A stretch of DNA of 28,944 nucleotides from Candidatus Odinarchaeia archaeon (lineage in GTDB: Archaea; Asgardarchaeota; Odinarchaeia; Odinarchaeales; Odinarchaeaceae): contig JAHQXC010000007.1 in the NCBI GenBank assembly GCA_029856525.1, forward strand, positions 1-28,944, given 5' to 3'. Position numbers and translations under genes: made by a program. Under the pieces are notes generated by a model. It was not told the origin of the DNA, made no database searches, and saw only the letters and a program-made list of their open reading frames with translations. Below, piece after piece: positions 6,395 through 28,944 of the stretch (position 1 is the stretch's first letter; each line of letters starts with the position of its first letter).

Positions 6395-7213
6395 ATGAGT
6401 GAAATGATCAAGCTACCGCCTAGAACAGGGCAGATCATATACGGGCCAATATACTCCCGCCGTATAGGCGTGGATATAGGGATTAACCTGCTTATCCAAG
6501 AGGGTAAAACATGTAATTTTAACTGCGTATACTGCCAGTACGGTGTCACTGGGAACCCTGTAGACTATAGAAAACTAAAAAACGGATGGGTTAAACCTGA
6601 GCTAGTATATAAAGCTCTCGAAAAAACGCTTTCAAATCTATTATCTGAAAGATTTAAACTAGACGCGGTTACTTTCTCAGGGTACGGTGAACCAACACTT
6701 CACCCGAAATTTCCAAGCATAGTCGCTAAAGTTAAAGAAATAAAAGAGAATTATTATCCTACTGCTAAACTCACTTTAATCACGAATTCAAGCATGTTTA
6801 AATATAAGAGAATATTGAAAACCGCTGAGTTATTCGATCAAATACTCGCTAAACTTGACGCTGCTACTAATAAAACATTTCACTCAATTAATAGGCCGGT
6901 AAATGAAAAACTTGATATTCACACCATAATTGACAGTCTAATTATTCTATCAAGTACAGTTAAACATTTTATTATACAAACACTTTTATTCAATACAATT
7001 GATCAAAACATTACCTCCAACACGAGTATCGAGGAGATGAAAGCTTTAAGTGAAGCTATTTGTAGAATTAAACCAAGAGAGGTGCAAGTGTACACAATTG
7101 TGAGAGCCCCCGCGATAAGCGCGGTTAAACCTGCTAGTGTAAATCAATTACAGGAGCTTAAAAAATACATAGAGGAAAGATGCGGCTCTAATGTTAATGT
7201 TAAAATATATTAA
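6395..7213 (+). CDS. Radical SAM Fe-S protein (COG0731-like)
   Basis: CNFNCVYC motif, IYGPIYSRRIG N-terminus, TFSGYGEPTLHP. Confidence 0.9.
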   Translation: MSEMIKLPPRTGQIIYGPIYSRRIGVDIGINLLIQEGKTCNFNCVYCQYGVTGNPVDYRKLKNGWVKPELVYKALEKTLSNLLSERFKLDAVTFSGYGEPTLHPKFPSIVAKVKEIKENYYPTAKLTLITNSSMFKYKRILKTAELFDQILAKLDAATNKTFHSINRPVNEKLDIHTIIDSLIILSSTVKHFIIQTLLFNTIDQNITSNTSIEEMKALSEAICRIKPREVQVYTIVRAPAISAVKPASVNQLQELKKYIEERCGSNVNVKIY

Positions 7214-22684: not shown

Positions 22685-23986
22685 TTACTTTTTAGGAACA
22701 ACTTCTTCAACCATGCCAACGGCGACCGTTGTACCCATGTCTCTGACCGCAAACCGACCTAATTGAGGTATGTCTCTGAGGCGTTCGATAACGAACGGTC
22801 TGATTGGAACCATTCTAACTATGACACCCTCACCTTTCTTTACGAACTCAGGTTTCTCCTGTATGACCGCGCCTGTCTTAGGGTCGAATTTACTGATAAG
22901 CTCCTCAAACTTGCAGGCTACCTGCGCTGTATGAGCGTGTACTACAGGAGTGTAACCGGCTGCGATAGCTGTCGGATGGTTGAGGACGAGGACACGGGCT
23001 CTAAACTCTTGAACTACTGTAGGCGGATTATCTAGATGCCCGCAGACGTCTCCGCGTTTAACATCACCTTTACCGATACCTCTAACGTTGAAGCCGATGT
23101 TATCACCCGGTTCAGCTTTCTCTAAACGCTCATGATGCATTTCAATCGATTTAACTTCGCCTGTTTTACCGGCTGGCTGGAATATTACTTTATCACCGAC
23201 TTTTAAAACACCTGTTTCAACTCTACCGCACGGTACTGTCCCAACACCGGTTATTGTGAAAGCGGTCTCTATAGGTATTCTTAAAGGCAGGTTAATAGGC
23301 TTCTCTGGAAGCTTCAAAGTGTCGAAGGCTTCTATTAGTGTCGGTCCTTTATACCAAGGCATGTTCGGACTGGGCTTAATTAAGTTGTCACCGGTCCACG
23401 CGGAAACTGGCACGAATAAAATTTCTTTATCAGCATTCGGGTAAAGAGGTTTAAGTAAATCTATAACAGCTTGTTTAATCTGGTTGTAACGTTCTTGACT
23501 CCAGTTCACTGAAGGATCATCCATTTTATTTACAGCTACGATTAACTGGTTTACTCCGAGAGTCTTAGCTAAATATGCGTGCTCACGGGTTTGACCGCCT
23601 AAGCTTATCCCGGCTTCAAACTCACCTTTCCTAGATGATACGACGAGTAACGCCGCGTCGGCTTGGCTGGCTCCGGTAATCATATTCTTAACAAAGTCTC
23701 TGTGACCTGGGGCGTCGATTATAGTAAAATCATATTTCGGTGTTGTGAACTTCTGATAGAAGAGATCTATGGTAATTCCACGCTCACGCTCCTCCTTCAG
23801 TCTATCCATGATGAAAGCGTATTTGAAGCTGCCTTTCTCCATTTGTTCAGCTAACTGCTCTATTTTGCGCATTTCAGCCTCGCTTATAGAGCCGGTAGCG
23901 TATAATATATGACCCATTAGAGTACTTTTCCCCGCGTCTATATGGCCGATAACTACTAAGTTAAGATGGGGTTTCTTTTCAGGCAT
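22685..23986 (-). CDS. tuf: Elongation factor 1-alpha
   Basis: [73 protein letters not shown]. Confidence 0.97.
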
Positions 23987-24103
23987 CGAATAATTTCCCT
24001 CCAGCTTATTATCATATTTTAGATATTATCAACTCCACTCTTTCAAGGCAGATAACTGAATGGATATTATAACAGTTACATCCGCGTTTCACTATTAGAG
24101 TGG

Positions 24104-24165
24104 GCGGGTGCTTAAATTGATTCCATCACCCGCTTATAATGTTAGGATACAAGCAGATATATAAA
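24104..24165 (-). promoter_or_regulatory. tuf promoter (TATA) followed by a 5'-UTR hairpin
   Basis: Minus-strand TTTATATA at 24165..24158; 7-bp GC-rich stem GCGGGTG/CACCCGC (24104..24110/24127..24133) just downstream of the expected start site. Confidence 0.5.
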
Positions 24166-24409
24166 TTTATTCGATTCAAGTGCCTGAGAGTTTAAGTTTT
24201 TAGTTAGTCTATTCTAAAATTTCGTTAACAGCACAGTGAATTAAACCAGCTTATATTCGCTGCGACTTGAGAATATTTAACGGGTTTAAGAGTTGAACAT
24301 GGTGTCTGAGTGAAAACGGGAACCGGTTAATGATGGTTTTAAGTAAATTTATAATTTTTATATGCATATAAATTAAATATTTAACTGGTTCGTAAACTGT
24401 GGTGGAATT

Positions 24410-26233
24410 ATGTGCGGTATAGTCGGTGTTATCACAGCTGAAGGGGGGGTTGGGGATGTTCTCAGCAAAGCTCTTAAGAGATTAGAGTACAGGGGATATG
24501 ATTCGGTGGGTGTGGCTACAGTTAACGAGAATAAACTATATATTAAGAAGGATAAAGGGAAGATAGATGAAGTTAATGAGAGACTGAATTTAACTGATGT
24601 ACCAGGGCGGACCGGTATAGGTCATACTAGATGGGCCACTCACGGCGTCCCTTCTAAGAGAAACTCTCATCCTCACGGTGATTGTAAGAATAGACTAGCT
24701 GTGGTTCATAATGGGATAATAGAGAATTACAGTGAGTTAAAGGAGAGGTTAACACGTAACGGCCATATTTTCTTATCCGACACTGACACCGAGGTAATCC
24801 CCCATCTTATCGAGGAGAAGCTGAATTCAGGTTTAACCGGTTTCCACGCAGTTCTAGAGGCGGTTAAAGAGTTGAAAGGATCATACGCGATCGCCGTGTT
24901 AATAGCAGATCACCCTGATAAAATATACGTAGCCCGTAATGAGAGTCCGCTTGTGATAGGTGTGAAAAATAAAAATTACGTGTTCTGCGCCTCCGATATA
25001 CCGGCTTTTCTACCTATAACTAATCAGGTGATTTTTCTCTACGACGGGGAGGTTGCAGAGCTTTCCTTAGAAGGTGTTGTAATTAGAAATTTAAACGGTG
25101 AAGTCGTTGAACGCGAAGTTTTAGAAGTGGATTTAACACCGGAGATGGCTAAGAAAGGCGGTTTCCCGCATTTCATGCTTAAAGAAATATTTGAACAACC
25201 TAAAGCTTTAAAAAACACGCTCCGCATAGATGAGCGGAAGTTAATTGAAGTTTGTAAAATATTAAGTGAAAGTAACAGAATAGTATTCACATCAGCTGGA
25301 ACCTCATTTTATGCAGGTTTATGCGGTAAATATTTTTTAGCAAATATTTCTAGAACAGGGTCAGAAGCCGTCATATCCTCTGAATTCGATGAAATTATGA
25401 AAAATATTATCGATGAAAGAACAACCGTTGTTGCGATAAGCCAGTCAGGGGAAACCTCGGATACAATAAGCGCGGCTAAATATGCTAAACGATTCGGCGC
25501 TAAAATTATTTCGATAAGTAACACTGTAGGCAGCTCGCTTACTAGGCTAGCTGATGCTACAGTGTATACTCAAGCAGGCCCTGAGATAGGGGTGGCCGCT
25601 ACTAAAACTTTTCTAGTTCAACTGGGTGCTTTAAGCCTTATCAGCTCTAAACTAGCCGAGTTTAAGGGGGTTATAACCAGAGACGAGTATAAAACACTAT
25701 TAAATGATTTGAATACTATACCTGAAATAATCCAATTAATTCTTGATAAAACAGAAGGAGAGGTTAAAGCCTCTACAGAAGCCTATTATAATTCTACAAG
25801 CATCTTGTATTTGGGGAGAGGGATTAGCTCAGCTGTAGCTATGGAAGGCGCTCTTAAACTTAAAGAAATATCGTATATTCACGCTGAAGGATACGCTGCC
25901 GGTGAATCGAAGCACGGTCCAATCGCGCTTATAAGTACAGGTTTCCCCGTCGTGTTTGTAGCGCCTATGGATTCAACGCATAATAAGATAATAGGGAATA
26001 TTATGGAGATGAAGTCAAGGGGTGCTAGAATAATATCTGTGATAGAAGAGGGAGATGAAGAGATTAAGAGTATCTCAGATACGGTTTTCCGTGTACCTAA
26101 AACCTCCGATAATTTTTTTAAACAAATAGTATATATAGTGCCGCTGCAATTATTCGCATATTACATTGCAGTTAGAAAAGGCTTAGATCCTGATAAGCCT
26201 AGAAATCTAGCTAAAGCTGTTACAGTTGCTTAA
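24410..26233 (+). CDS. glmS: Glutamine--fructose-6-phosphate aminotransferase (isomerizing)
   Basis: MCGIVG, LEYRGYDS, GHTRWATHG, VHNGIIENY, SQSGETSDT, EGALKLKEISYIHAEGY, KHGPIAL, DKPRNLAKAVTV. Confidence 0.97.
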   Translation: MCGIVGVITAEGGVGDVLSKALKRLEYRGYDSVGVATVNENKLYIKKDKGKIDEVNERLNLTDVPGRTGIGHTRWATHGVPSKRNSHPHGDCKNRLAVVHNGIIENYSELKERLTRNGHIFLSDTDTEVIPHLIEEKLNSGLTGFHAVLEAVKELKGSYAIAVLIADHPDKIYVARNESPLVIGVKNKNYVFCASDIPAFLPITNQVIFLYDGEVAELSLEGVVIRNLNGEVVEREVLEVDLTPEMAKKGGFPHFMLKEIFEQPKALKNTLRIDERKLIEVCKILSESNRIVFTSAGTSFYAGLCGKYFLANISRTGSEAVISSEFDEIMKNIIDERTTVVAISQSGETSDTISAAKYAKRFGAKIISISNTVGSSLTRLADATVYTQAGPEIGVAATKTFLVQLGALSLISSKLAEFKGVITRDEYKTLLNDLNTIPEIIQLILDKTEGEVKASTEAYYNSTSILYLGRGISSAVAMEGALKLKEISYIHAEGYAAGESKHGPIALISTGFPVVFVAPMDSTHNKIIGNIMEMKSRGARIISVIEEGDEEIKSISDTVFRVPKTSDNFFKQIVYIVPLQLFAYYIAVRKGLDPDKPRNLAKAVTVA

Positions 26234-26243
26234 AGGTGAAATT

Positions 26244-26924
26244 ATGTTTTATACACCTATATCATCTAGGACAAGCCCGCCTTACGCTACACTAGGGATA
26301 ATCGCTATTAACGTAATTATATTTTTCATTCAAAGCTCTAGTCCAGTCTATTATAATTATTTCCTGTTAAATTTCGGATTGATACCTTATGAAATAGTTT
26401 CAGGAGTTAATCTTCAAACGCTAATAACATCTATGTTTCTGCATGGAAGCTTCATCCATATCTTCTTCAACATGTATATACTCTTAATATTCGGGCCTGC
26501 GGTGGAGAGAAAGTATGGGACAGCTCTTTTTATAATATTCTATATTTTCTGCGGTGTGGCGGCTGGATTAATACACTCCTATATTACATTTATATTTATG
26601 CCTGCTGAAGCGTACACGATCACAATAGGCGCGTCTGGGGCTATATTCGGGGTGATGGCGGCGTATGCCGTAAACTATCCGAACCAGTATCTGCTACTAT
26701 TCTTCTTCACACCTGTGAAAGCGTATATAGCTATTACATTATTCTTTGTTCTTGAAACAGTAATGGGTTTAGCTGGATTATTCGGAGCGGCTTCAAGTAT
26801 AGCTCATTTCGCTCATGTCGGAGGTTTTATCGCAGGGGTTTTATTCGCGCTTCTCTACCTCCGGTTCAAGGGACGGGGGCCTAAAATAAAAAAGGAGAGA
26901 GATATAGAGGTTATCTATCTTTAA
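26244..26924 (+). CDS. Rhomboid intramembrane serine protease
   Basis: FLHGSFIHIFFNM, catalytic GASGA, AHFAHVGG; ATG 26244 with SD GGTGA preferred over TTG 26226. Confidence 0.93.
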   Translation: MFYTPISSRTSPPYATLGIIAINVIIFFIQSSSPVYYNYFLLNFGLIPYEIVSGVNLQTLITSMFLHGSFIHIFFNMYILLIFGPAVERKYGTALFIIFYIFCGVAAGLIHSYITFIFMPAEAYTITIGASGAIFGVMAAYAVNYPNQYLLLFFFTPVKAYIAITLFFVLETVMGLAGLFGAASSIAHFAHVGGFIAGVLFALLYLRFKGRGPKIKKERDIEVIYL

Positions 26925-27453
26925 TAGTGTTCAACTGGCCGGTGACTTTTCTAGCGCCTATAGAGACAGGGATGGCAATAAGTCCGCCGACTGTGAATTG
27001 CACGACATTTAACGGGAGCTCGACTGCAGCTGCTGCTATACTAAATAGTAGGGATTCAACCATAAAGTAGCCTGTTATCATCCATGGCCCGGCGACGATG
27101 AAACACGCGATTAAATCTAGATAGGTAAACCGATCTCTTCTACTGATAAGACCTGCGAGAAAACCTTCAAGCCCCTTTATTATAAACGTCCAAGGGGAGT
27201 AGAAAGCATACCCTGAAATTATATCAGCTAAAGCTGATCCTAGACCGCCAGCCACTCCGCCTACTACTGGTCCGAATAATAGTCCTGAGAGCATAACAGC
27301 CGCATCTCCTATGTTAATGTAGCCGCTTGTAGCTGGTACTGGTATTTGAATGATAATGGTCAACGCTATTGTAAGAGCGGAAAACAAACCTGTCAACGCT
27401 GCTTGAACTGAAAGAGGGTAGGCCGGTGTTCTTGATTTAAAAAAGTTTTTCAT
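26911..27453 (-). CDS. ECF transporter S component, COG4720-like (PdxU/HmpT-type; substrate unproven)
   Basis: IPVPATSGYINIGDAAV...FGPVVGGVAGGLGSALADIISGY...PWTFIIKGLEG; ATG 27453 with SD GGTGG. Confidence 0.88.
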   Translation of the reverse strand: MKNFFKSRTPAYPLSVQAALTGLFSALTIALTIIIQIPVPATSGYINIGDAAVMLSGLLFGPVVGGVAGGLGSALADIISGYAFYSPWTFIIKGLEGFLAGLISRRDRFTYLDLIACFIVAGPWMITGYFMVESLLFSIAAAAVELPLNVVQFTVGGLIAIPVSIGARKVTGQLNTIKDR

Positions 27454-27464
27454 AAAACCACCAG

Positions 27465-27504
27465 TATTCAAGCAGATACTTGTATACAAGCTTTAACTTG
27501 AATA
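27465..27504. promoter_or_regulatory. Tandem palindromic operator, 2 x TWCAAG-N6-CTTGWA, over the S-component promoter
   Basis: TATTCAAG-cagata-CTTGTATACAAG-ctttaa-CTTGAATA has dyad symmetry over 40 bp. It abuts the minus-strand TATA TTTATATT (27508..27501), which has BRE-like GAAAAG upstream. Confidence 0.75.
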
Positions 27505-27513
27505 TAAACTTTT

Positions 27514-28929
27514 CTAAAGCAGAAAAGCCAGCTCCTCTAACGCGTTAAGAACTCTAATCCCTCTAGCAGTTATAGAATAATATTTGCGATTATCCCTCTC
27601 AGTGGAAGAGATTAAACCACGCTCCTCAAGCTCGTTAAGATGCTGATAAACAGCCTGCAAACTAACAGATTTAGACAGTGAATTCCAGAGAGAATATCCG
27701 TACGTTTCACCTAGAGAAATCAATCTTAATATTCTAAGCTTCAAACCGACTTTATCCATTACACTTATATTCTTCGAAAAACCGGATAAAGCCGCAAGTA
27801 AAAACTGGTCTTTCAACCCGCTTCCGGTAATAATACACGTAACATTATCATCTTTATTCAAAACCCCGCTTTCACCGAGTTTTTTAACAGCCGCTATAGT
27901 AGCACAGCTAGCCGTCTCCGCGTAAACACCCTCCTCTAAAGCTAAAACCCTCTGAGCTTCAGCGATATCCTTATCAGAAACCGATAAAGCCATACCGCCA
28001 GATTCTTTAATCGCTGATAAAGCAAGTTCACCGTTTAAAGGCTCTAAAACCAGTATCGCTAAAGCAATAGTCGAGCCGTTGCTAACCCGTTCTACCCTAG
28101 TCTTTTTTTCAAAAGCCTGGACGATAGGTGAACATGTTAATGATTGCACCCCGACTAGTTTAGGCAGCTGAAGAGATAAACCGAGATCGTAAAATTCTTT
28201 AAATCCCTTCCACAGAGAATATACGCTGCCTCCGTCTCCAACAGGCATTACAACGTAGTCGGGGACACCTATCTGCTCAATAATCTCATATGCGATTGTC
28301 TTCTGAGCCTCTATTATAAGCGGGTTGAGACCGGAAGTAGCAGGGTAAACGTTTTCACCTTTAAATCGCTCAATAACAAAGCGTATAGCTTCATCAACAG
28401 TCTCACCGTTATAGATAATATTAGCCCCGTACATCTTCATCTGAGCTAGTTTACCTATATCCACCCTTCTAGGAACAACTATCGTACTTTTAATATTCGC
28501 GCGCGCGCAATATGCGGCTACAGCTGCGCCTAGATTTCCATTAGATGCGCAAACCATCTCCTTAAAATTTAAGCTTAAAGCATGAGATATTAGCAGACTA
28601 GCAGCTCTATCTCTAAAAGAATTAGTGGGATTACGCGACTCATCTTTTAAAAACAAGTTATTTAAACCTAAAATCGCGCTCAGCCTGCTAGCCTTGAATA
28701 AAGGAGTCCTCCCCTCTCCTAAAGATACTCTAAACTCCGGGCTAATATAAGGTAGAAGCGAAGCATACCGCCAGAAAGAGTCTACATCTAAGAAAGAAAT
28801 ATTATCTTTGAGTTTAGAGCAATCACAGAAATAGATAAGCGGCGTGGAGCATACCTCGCAAAGTGAAATAACCCTCTCTGTAATATAGACTCTACCACAC
28901 TTAGGACATTTAAACTCCATAGAACCCAT
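27514..28929 (-). CDS. Threonine-synthase-like fold-type II domain lacking the catalytic Lys, fused to a C-terminal PadR wHTH; predicted transcription regulator
   Basis: Zn ribbon CPKC...CEVC, SLGEGRTPL, KDESRNPTNSF(R)DR, ASNGN, EAQKTIAYEI, PVGDGG, TGSGLKD; then LKLRILRLISLGETYGYSL...AVYQHLNELEERGLI...RKYYSITARG. Confidence 0.85.
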   Translation of the reverse strand: MGSMEFKCPKCGRVYITERVISLCEVCSTPLIYFCDCSKLKDNISFLDVDSFWRYASLLPYISPEFRVSLGEGRTPLFKASRLSAILGLNNLFLKDESRNPTNSFRDRAASLLISHALSLNFKEMVCASNGNLGAAVAAYCARANIKSTIVVPRRVDIGKLAQMKMYGANIIYNGETVDEAIRFVIERFKGENVYPATSGLNPLIIEAQKTIAYEIIEQIGVPDYVVMPVGDGGSVYSLWKGFKEFYDLGLSLQLPKLVGVQSLTCSPIVQAFEKKTRVERVSNGSTIALAILVLEPLNGELALSAIKESGGMALSVSDKDIAEAQRVLALEEGVYAETASCATIAAVKKLGESGVLNKDDNVTCIITGSGLKDQFLLAALSGFSKNISVMDKVGLKLRILRLISLGETYGYSLWNSLSKSVSLQAVYQHLNELEERGLISSTERDNRKYYSITARGIRVLNALEELAFLL

Positions 28930-28944
28930 AAATAAATTTATTGG

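Follow-up and report, generated by a model that had tools for sequence, protein, structure and literature searches.

What do two abutting 18-bp palindromes do in the spacer between two genes of an uncultured Asgard archaeon? The question is raised by a 28,944-nucleotide stretch of DNA from Candidatus Odinarchaeia archaeon (contig JAHQXC010000007.1 of assembly GCA_029856525.1). The stretch, referred to as the window, is an entire contig (G000:C82), and the host genome has 1.32 Mb and 38.5% G+C. Three features follow one another on its minus strand: a gene for a 471-aa protein (27514-28929), a 60-nt spacer, and a gene for a 180-aa S-component of the energy-coupling factor (ECF) type of transporter. 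The upstream protein joins a domain like threonine synthase (ThrC) to a PadR-type winged helix-turn-helix (wHTH), and is referred to as the fusion. The palindromes, box 1 and box 2, are probably a repressor operator of the S-component gene (S-gene) promoter, bound by the fusion, a protein that would respond to vitamin B6 in the form of pyridoxal 5'-phosphate (PLP).

Two boxes in the promoter of the S-gene

The sequence-only reading had placed the palindromes at 27467..27484 and 27485..27502, between a TATA box and a Shine-Dalgarno (SD) sequence. On re-reading, sequences and coordinates are exact, and the placement is as claimed. The features of the locus, in the direction of transcription, are:

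27514..28929, minus strand: presumed regulator gene, 471 aa, ThrC-like PLP domain and C-terminal PadR winged helix (PALP, PadR)
28612..28614, minus strand: Arg106 codon at the position of the PLP Schiff-base lysine (alignments with ThrC and PDB 2zsj)
27637..27663, minus strand: putative recognition-helix codons SLQAVYQHL, residues 423-431 (invariant YQHL and arm co-variation)
27502..27513, minus strand: predicted S-gene promoter, with an A-rich AAAAG (27513-27509) like a TFB-responsive element (BRE) and a TATA box TTTATAT (27508-27502), assigned by sequence
27485..27502, minus strand: TATA-proximal candidate operator box (box 2), TTCAAGttaaagCTTGTA, plus-strand TACAAGctttaaCTTGAA (sequence, position weight matrix (PWM), congeners)
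27467..27484, minus strand: TATA-distal candidate operator box (box 1), TACAAGtatctgCTTGAA, plus-strand TTCAAGcagataCTTGTA (sequence, PWM, congeners)
27458..27462, minus strand: putative SD-like GGTGG, 4 nt 5' of the ATG
26911..27453, minus strand: target gene, ECF S-component of 180 aa, PdxU/HmpT (COG4720/PF07155) type (PF07155)

Read on the minus strand, the spacer runs from the stop codon TAG (27516-27514) through AAAAG, TTTATAT, TCAAGttaaagCTTGTA, TACAAGtatctgCTTGAA, ta, ct, GGTGG and tttt to the ATG at 27453. The first base of box 2 is the final T of the TATA box. Transcription is estimated to start near 27478-27479, given the usual archaeal TATA-to-start distance of about 25 nt. Box 1 covers this predicted start, and its 3' edge is 4 nt ahead of the SD. 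The ATG at 27453 is kept in the congeners and is the real start of the S-component because of its conserved N-terminus (MKNF...) and the SD; the TTG at 27489 chosen by the open reading frame (ORF) finder falls within the palindrome.

Each box has five of six complementary arm positions, and 27465-27504 as a whole forms a 20+20 nt palindrome that is 75% complementary. The pattern TWCAAG-N6-CTTGWA, with at most one mismatch, has 3 matches in the window against 0.36 expected. Abutting pairs of 6-N6-6 palindromes with at least 5/6 paired positions are not rare (4 in the window, 0.95 in shuffles). Four mutually related arms are found in the window only at 27467-27502, where the shuffle mean is 0.005. 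The other abutting pairs, at window positions 6618, 21554 and 24337, have arms that are not mutually related; the last of them belongs to the AT-rich spacer between tuf and glmS, a short way 5' of glmS. From the window by itself, the case that the boxes are not due to chance is modest, and the comparative data therefore carry the argument.

A PWM made of 13 boxes, none from Odinarchaeia or its order, was run over the 2.64 million positions of the host genome. Box 2 ranks first (22.4 bits), and box 1, at 15.9-16.7 bits, is among the ten best matches. The runner-up, TACAATTTAAAACTTGCA at G000:C62:7955-7972 (L176 1056-1073), scores 21.7 bits and could be a chance match or an internal site. It lies about 900 nt inside an ORF for a class-V aminotransferase (PF00266), itself a PLP-dependent enzyme. 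The exact pattern has four further sites in the genome, all within ORFs.

Conservation of the boxes and their place before vitamin B6 genes

Three congeners have an S-gene orthologue with 80-88% identity, and more distantly related Asgard genomes also have one. The congeners keep the TATA box, the layout and the inner arms (CTTGTA|TACAAG), with TACAAG the same in all four Odin genomes; all four spacers differ. The TATA box occurs as TTTTTAT, TTTATAT or TTTATATA. The outer arms drift to TTCAAG, TTAAAG or TAAAAG on one side and to CTTGAA or CTTTAA on the other. The sequence-only reading had named loss of the motif from orthologous promoters as grounds for giving it up. Phylogenetic footprinting gave the opposite result, with arms kept and spacers varied in the three congeners and related boxes across Asgard.

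The fusion is widespread in the Asgard phylum, and its order relative to the S-gene changes. The two genes are co-directional in Odin and in family f2, convergent in G013, G040, G009 and many Loki-type genomes, and divergent in G016, G020, G028, G014, G030, G039, G037 and G035. Related 6-N6-6 boxes stay 5' of the S-gene in all three arrangements. Because the boxes track the S-gene whatever its orientation, the element is part of the S-gene promoter rather than a 3'-terminal element of the preceding gene. The comparison supports a regulated promoter of its own for the S-gene in those Asgard lineages.

The boxes themselves vary by lineage. The S promoter of G008 has TACAAGtacaatCTTGTA twice with an 18-bp period, that of G029 has TACAAGttgaatCTTGAA-ta-TTAAAGttgaaaCTTGAA, that of G025 has TATCGGtaataaCCGATA|TATCGGtacattCCTATA, and that of G009 has a single TTCAAGttttaaCTTGAA. 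TATAGG-N6-CCTATA types are found in families f6, f13 and f17, and some thirty loci of the Loki, Hermod, Thor and Hod types have tandem TATAAG-N6-CTTATA. Loki-type boxes approach TATAAGTTnnAACTTATA, and their arms may extend to 8 bp. The order TATA, box, box, SD and ATG is common to the Odin S promoter, the Loki-type S promoters and the Heimdall pdxS promoters. In an automatic scan at 5/6 or better, 16 of the 25 S promoters in fusion-bearing genomes have a box. In genomes where the fusion was not found, the same scan gave none in five promoters of S homologues.

Single boxes are seen in G009, Hadarchaeota and Thermococci, and tandem boxes usually have a period of 16, 18 or 20 bp, once 30 bp. 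By these comparisons, the 18-bp 6-N6-6 box is the unit. The invariant 12-bp central junction CTTGTATACAAG was considered as the real site and rejected, because in other lineages a 6-N6-6 box can stand alone, or two can be spaced 20 bp apart around another junction.

Outside Asgard, species-representative genomes also carry the fusion: it was found in metagenome-assembled genomes (MAGs) of Bathyarchaeia/Thermoproteota, Geothermarchaeales, Hadarchaeota and Thermococci. In several lineages, within Asgard and beyond, the fusion gene neighbours vitamin B6 synthesis genes. The fusion gene of G012 is directly followed by pdxS and likely pdxT, and in five Heimdallarchaeota loci and one Bathyarchaeia MAG locus the fusion is divergent from pdxS-pdxT. 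In the pdxS direction, the shared spacer of the latter loci reads TATA box, TTAATGtttcaaCTTTAA, ta, TACAAGttataaCTTGTA, SD and ATG, the layout of the Odin S promoter; the boxes of these divergent spacers read TACAAGttataaCTTGTA-ta-TTAAAGttgaaaCATTAA. A Thermococci MAG has a pdxS-pdxT-fusion operon preceded by TACAAGcccgaaCTTGCA, in GC-rich DNA, and a Hadarchaeota MAG has one preceded by TACAAGttacagCTTGAA. A TACAAG-N6-CTTGTA box thus stands ahead of pdxS-pdxT, next to the fusion, in Heimdall-, Bathy- and Hadarchaeota and in Thermococci. In Jordarchaeia-type genomes (f7) pdxS is unlinked to the fusion, yet TTAAAGaaacatCTTTAG or TTGAAGaaataaCTTCAC, a weaker match, is found at the same position.

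The candidate regulator and competing explanations

The presumed regulator matches PF00291 (PALP) with 260 bits and, at residues 400-462, PadR (PF03551) with 37.6 bits against a cut-off of 27. The wHTH, at the C-terminus, is recognised by PadR, HTH_45 and ArsR-type models and not by GntR models. The NCBIfam model PRK05638 'threonine synthase' matches the protein end to end at 389, below the cut-off of 421, and the best PDB matches of the PLP-fold domain are threonine synthases. At the Schiff-base lysine the protein has Arg106: SFRDRAAS stands against SFKDRG in alignments with the genome's own ThrC (G000:C4) and PDB 2zsj. The lysine that is tested for in a threonine synthase is thus missing. 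The glycine-rich phosphate loop is kept (GDGGS against GNAGN in 2zsj). The genome has a separate standalone ThrC (G000:C4) with the lysine. The regulator is presumably a threonine-synthase-like pseudoenzyme fused to a PadR-type winged helix.

At the lysine position, the other branches of the fusion family have R, L, I, N, V, A or T; the exception is the Loki-type branch (Loki-, Hermod-, Thor- and Hod-type; loci L056-L070 and L137-L174), where the lysine (SFKDR) is retained. Multiple losses of this lysine would account for the pattern; alternatively, Loki-type members may still be capable of an internal aldimine. The fusion gene lies near a GINS (Sld5-domain) gene in several Asgard families (L037 8837-9391; L048, L052, L053). 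In L048, L052 and L053 the GINS gene is followed by an MCM gene, both running divergently from the fusion, a conserved synteny without an obvious B6 link.

In the family alignment, YQHL at the end of the recognition helix is invariant, and the residues before it vary with the box arms. Helices of the form Q-A/S-V/I-YQH go with CAAG or AAAG arms in 10 of 10 boxed loci, plus G008 and G029. Those of the form A/P/S-A-I/V-YQH go with TAAG arms in 22 of 22 loci, one of these TAGG, and P/S-T-V/I-YQH goes with AGG or CGG arms. The wider-archaea loci were retrieved by a 5-sequence wHTH alignment, and one search pattern contains QAVYQH, so that the loci from that pattern are biased to the Q-type helix. 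The match between arm sequence and recognition helix of the fusion is suggestive, not proof.

In the mechanism that we infer, one fusion dimer would bind each box, with one T(T/A)CAAG arm contacted by each of its winged helices. The bound protein would keep TBP/TFB or RNA polymerase from using the S-gene promoter, and transcription that runs on from the regulator gene would be stopped as well. The boxes run from the last TATA base across the predicted start to 4 nt before the SD, and the predicted sign is therefore repression. Archaeal repressors such as MDR1, LrpA, Phr and TrmB act at or just downstream of the TATA box, where they block recruitment of TBP/TFB or polymerase. The sensor domain would most likely report B6 status by holding PLP or a related vitamer without a Schiff base, and this ligand would be the co-repressor. 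With sufficient B6 the importer (elsewhere, B6 synthesis) would be off, and with scarce B6 the importer would be released.

Several observations weigh against a B6-responsive repressor that acts through these boxes. The sequence-only reading had called the two 6-nt spacers unrelated; they do differ among congeners, but they are not random, and T follows AAG in most boxes (the window and loci L056-L070 and L137-L174). The period of the boxes varies, and there is therefore no fixed helical phasing. Where the fusion is present, nine of the 25 S promoters have no box that reaches 5/6; some of the nine carry 4/6 versions, and that of G040 shows none. No autoregulatory box is seen upstream of the regulator gene in the closed congener G002 (L037 7571-7642). 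The genome-wide PWM scan, which had been proposed as a way to define the regulon, ranked box 2 on top but, like the exact pattern, gave no further intergenic site in the host genome, so the regulon here would be a single gene. No more than two or three independent transitions underlie the helix-arm co-variation. With the lysine gone, the ligand could be something other than PLP, and the Loki-type proteins keep the lysine. The 40-nt palindrome also folds as RNA at -13.7 kcal/mol (z -1.9, with 9 of 200 shuffles as good).

Two neighbouring observations concern the spacers and the size of the regulon. In divergent pdxS spacers, the T-after-AAG asymmetry points toward the regulator gene. A large regulon was considered and dropped: the other host-genome sites are within ORFs, and in four of the five genomes tested (G008, G029, G009 and G032) the degenerate pattern is not enriched over a reversed control.

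The fold energy bears on the view that the palindrome acts as RNA, either as a hairpin at the 3' end of the regulator mRNA (a terminator or stabiliser) or as an S-gene 5' leader that occludes translation signals. A U4 run about 10 nt downstream of the palindrome would suit this view, as would G003 (L010), where both outer arms have changed together (TAAAAG...CTTTAA) and the long-hairpin pairing is kept. This one paired change stands against unpaired ones in G001, and the same symmetry is to be expected of a palindromic site in DNA. The mismatches are not of the wobble type, with A opposite G in TTAAAG...CTTGTA (L009) and A opposite C in TACAAG...CTTGCA. Base identity, beyond pairing, is kept across phyla, some lineages have one 18-bp box as the unit, and the spacing of tandem boxes is not constant. 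In other lineages the boxes precede an S or pdxS gene in divergent or convergent orientation to the regulator gene, and so do not form the 3' end of the latter. Transcription from this TATA box would copy no more than the 3' half of the palindrome. Short AU-rich stems would have little stability if the host, like hot-spring Odinarchaeia, is a thermophile. An Rfam scan of 23900-28944 at E<=1 gave no match, and 27465-27504 has neither a stem clearly better than shuffles nor the U-tract of such a hairpin. RNA function is accordingly very improbable, and the preference of the sequence-only reading for a protein operator is upheld by arm identity across phyla, orientation independence and the non-wobble mismatches. 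Chance palindromes in AT-rich intergenic DNA have in their favour the abutting 6-N6-6 palindromes in the window (4 at 5/6 or better, about 1 expected) and the lack of genome-wide enrichment in four of five genomes. Conservation, recurrence across phyla before two sets of B6 genes and first rank with an independent PWM effectively refute chance.

If the boxes are a protein operator, the protein could be another transcription factor, with the ThrC-like/PadR gene a mere conserved neighbour. In G008, G029 and G032 the regulator gene does not adjoin the S-gene and the boxes are still present. Against this stand the finding of boxes only in fusion-bearing genomes, the tracking of the arm sequence with the recognition helix of the fusion, and the association, in several phyla, between the fusion and two distinct B6 targets, which is hard to account for otherwise. 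Another reader of the boxes thus seems highly unlikely. A different outcome of binding by the fusion is less remote, although still unlikely: activation, or a threonine-pathway metabolite (O-phosphohomoserine, threonine) or an amino-acid-PLP adduct as the ligand. Bacterial apo-PdxR activates pdxST, and PLP is its anti-activator (PMC5320631). The sensor domain is closest to threonine synthases, and with the Schiff-base lysine gone, classical PLP binding is not assured. The conserved targets, on the other hand, are pdxST and a PdxU/HmpT-type carrier and not threonine genes. The boxes touch the TATA box on its downstream side and overlie the predicted start, likewise in the Heimdall pdxS and Loki S promoters. 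Such a position in archaea is typical of repressors, not activators.

A further resemblance to the boxes lies at tuf. The sequence-only reading had noted CAAGCAGATA at 24150-24159, at the tuf TATA box, as a half-site and possibly a chance one, and this caution was apt. It is present as a half-site only: TACAAGCAGATA (24148-24159) repeats the arm and spacer of box 1 and has no partner arm. It is absent from the genome PWM list, in which the 25th match scores 13.9 bits. It is kept in G002, but inside a fully conserved block of about 90 nt in the tuf-glmS spacer (window 24090-24175), and its conservation is uninformative because the whole block is conserved. The block also holds a GGGCGGGTG...CACCCGC hairpin and differs hardly at all in the closed congener genome (L037 2730-2800). 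It has no Rfam match and could be a leader or a small RNA upstream of tuf.

Vitamin B6 in the host and comparison with known systems

The S-component matches PF07155 with 131.8 bits. Its sole PDB match at E<=1 is 4HZU chain S (HmpT/PdxU2), with E 3e-15 and a gap-free alignment over 142 residues. PdxU and PdxU2/HmpT are B6 carriers of COG4720/PF07155 (PMC9997740). HmpT binds pyridoxamine in a pocket of E41, H84, Q87, Y120, N140 and Q143 (PMC4860826). Tyr120, Asn140 and Gln143 are identical in the S-component, and Glu41 is replaced by Asp, His84 by Lys and Gln87 by Glu. Given these three substitutions, the preferred vitamer may differ from that of HmpT. The host genome encodes a shared EcfAA'T module, an ABC-ABC-CbiQ-like cluster at G000:C104, which would energise the S-component, and a PdxK/ThiD-family kinase.

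The gene pdxS was not found in the host genome (93% complete) or in G001-G003, of which G002 is a single 1.42-Mb contig. Among 41 relatives, an S-gene match is present in 30, pdxS in 10 and both in 2, counts that are inflated by kinship. The pattern recurs in several families, and the three genomes with neither are 77-84% complete. The lack of a pdxS match, the regulated PdxU/HmpT-type carrier and the shared ECF module point to B6 auxotrophy in Odinarchaeia, which could help cultivation attempts. If the fusion controls B6 import as proposed, these Asgard archaea would be B6 auxotrophs with a regulated vitamin dependence that can be addressed by experiment.

Somewhat less firmly than the role of the boxes in the window, we consider it likely that the fusion represents a widespread family of archaeal B6 regulators, with a ThrC fold that has mostly lost its lysine and a PadR wHTH, controlling B6 import alone in Odinarchaeia. 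The family has been seen in Asgard lineages, Bathyarchaeia/Thermoproteota, Hadarchaeota and Thermococci. A full-text literature search found no description of a ThrC-like/PadR regulator, of its motif or of an archaeal B6 regulator. Regulation by vitamin B6 is described in Bacteria (PdxR/MocR), and the operator makes the archaeal case testable: the DNA target is 36 bp long, there is a candidate for the protein, and a ligand is predicted. The fusion family is labelled "threonine synthase" in databases and is due for re-annotation. In uncultured archaea, the motif could serve to predict genes for B6 synthesis and uptake, among them the poorly characterised B6 transporters, which have been flagged as a gap (PMC9997740).

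The predicted system resembles several known ones in part. HmpT/PdxU2 of Lactobacillus brevis, which is pyridoxamine-specific, belongs to the same Pfam and COG family as the S-component, whose own substrate is predicted. PadR regulators share the PF03551 winged helix, an inverted-repeat operator with half-site centres about 12 bp apart, and tandem sites. The PadR operator of B. subtilis is ATGT-N8-ACAT, whereas the half-site here is TWCAAG. PadR family members are small proteins that sense through their own C-terminal helices, whereas here a 380-aa enzyme-fold domain precedes the wHTH. ThiR, a ThiN-type domain with a DNA-binding domain, is likewise an archaeal vitamin regulator in which an enzyme-derived ligand domain is fused to a DNA-binding domain. 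Comparative genomics by Rodionov et al. in 2017 reportedly predicted that it represses thiamine synthesis and transporter genes through palindromes. The vitamin, the sensor fold, the family of the DNA-binding domain and the motif are all different.

The closest functional parallel is MocR/PdxR. These regulators also consist of a sensor derived from a PLP enzyme and fused to a winged helix, and the regulator gene is often divergent from its target, as in several of the archaeal loci. Their regulons comprise pdxST and the pdxU transporter (PMC5320631), that is, both B6 synthesis and uptake genes, and here the boxes stand ahead of pdxS-pdxT or a PdxU/HmpT-type S-gene in several phyla. MocR regulators are reported not to be present in Archaea (PMC5320631). 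The MocR/PdxR sensor is a fold-type I, aminotransferase-like domain with its PLP lysine, whereas the archaeal sensor is a fold-type II, ThrC-like PF00291 domain in which the lysine is mostly lost. The wHTH is N-terminal and of the GntR type in the former, and C-terminal and PadR-type in the latter. Apo-PdxR activates pdxST, whereas repression at an archaeal TATA/BRE promoter is predicted here. The fusion system is functionally like PdxR yet has neither of the two domains that define it. If the reading is correct, the family would be a non-homologous counterpart of bacterial PdxR.

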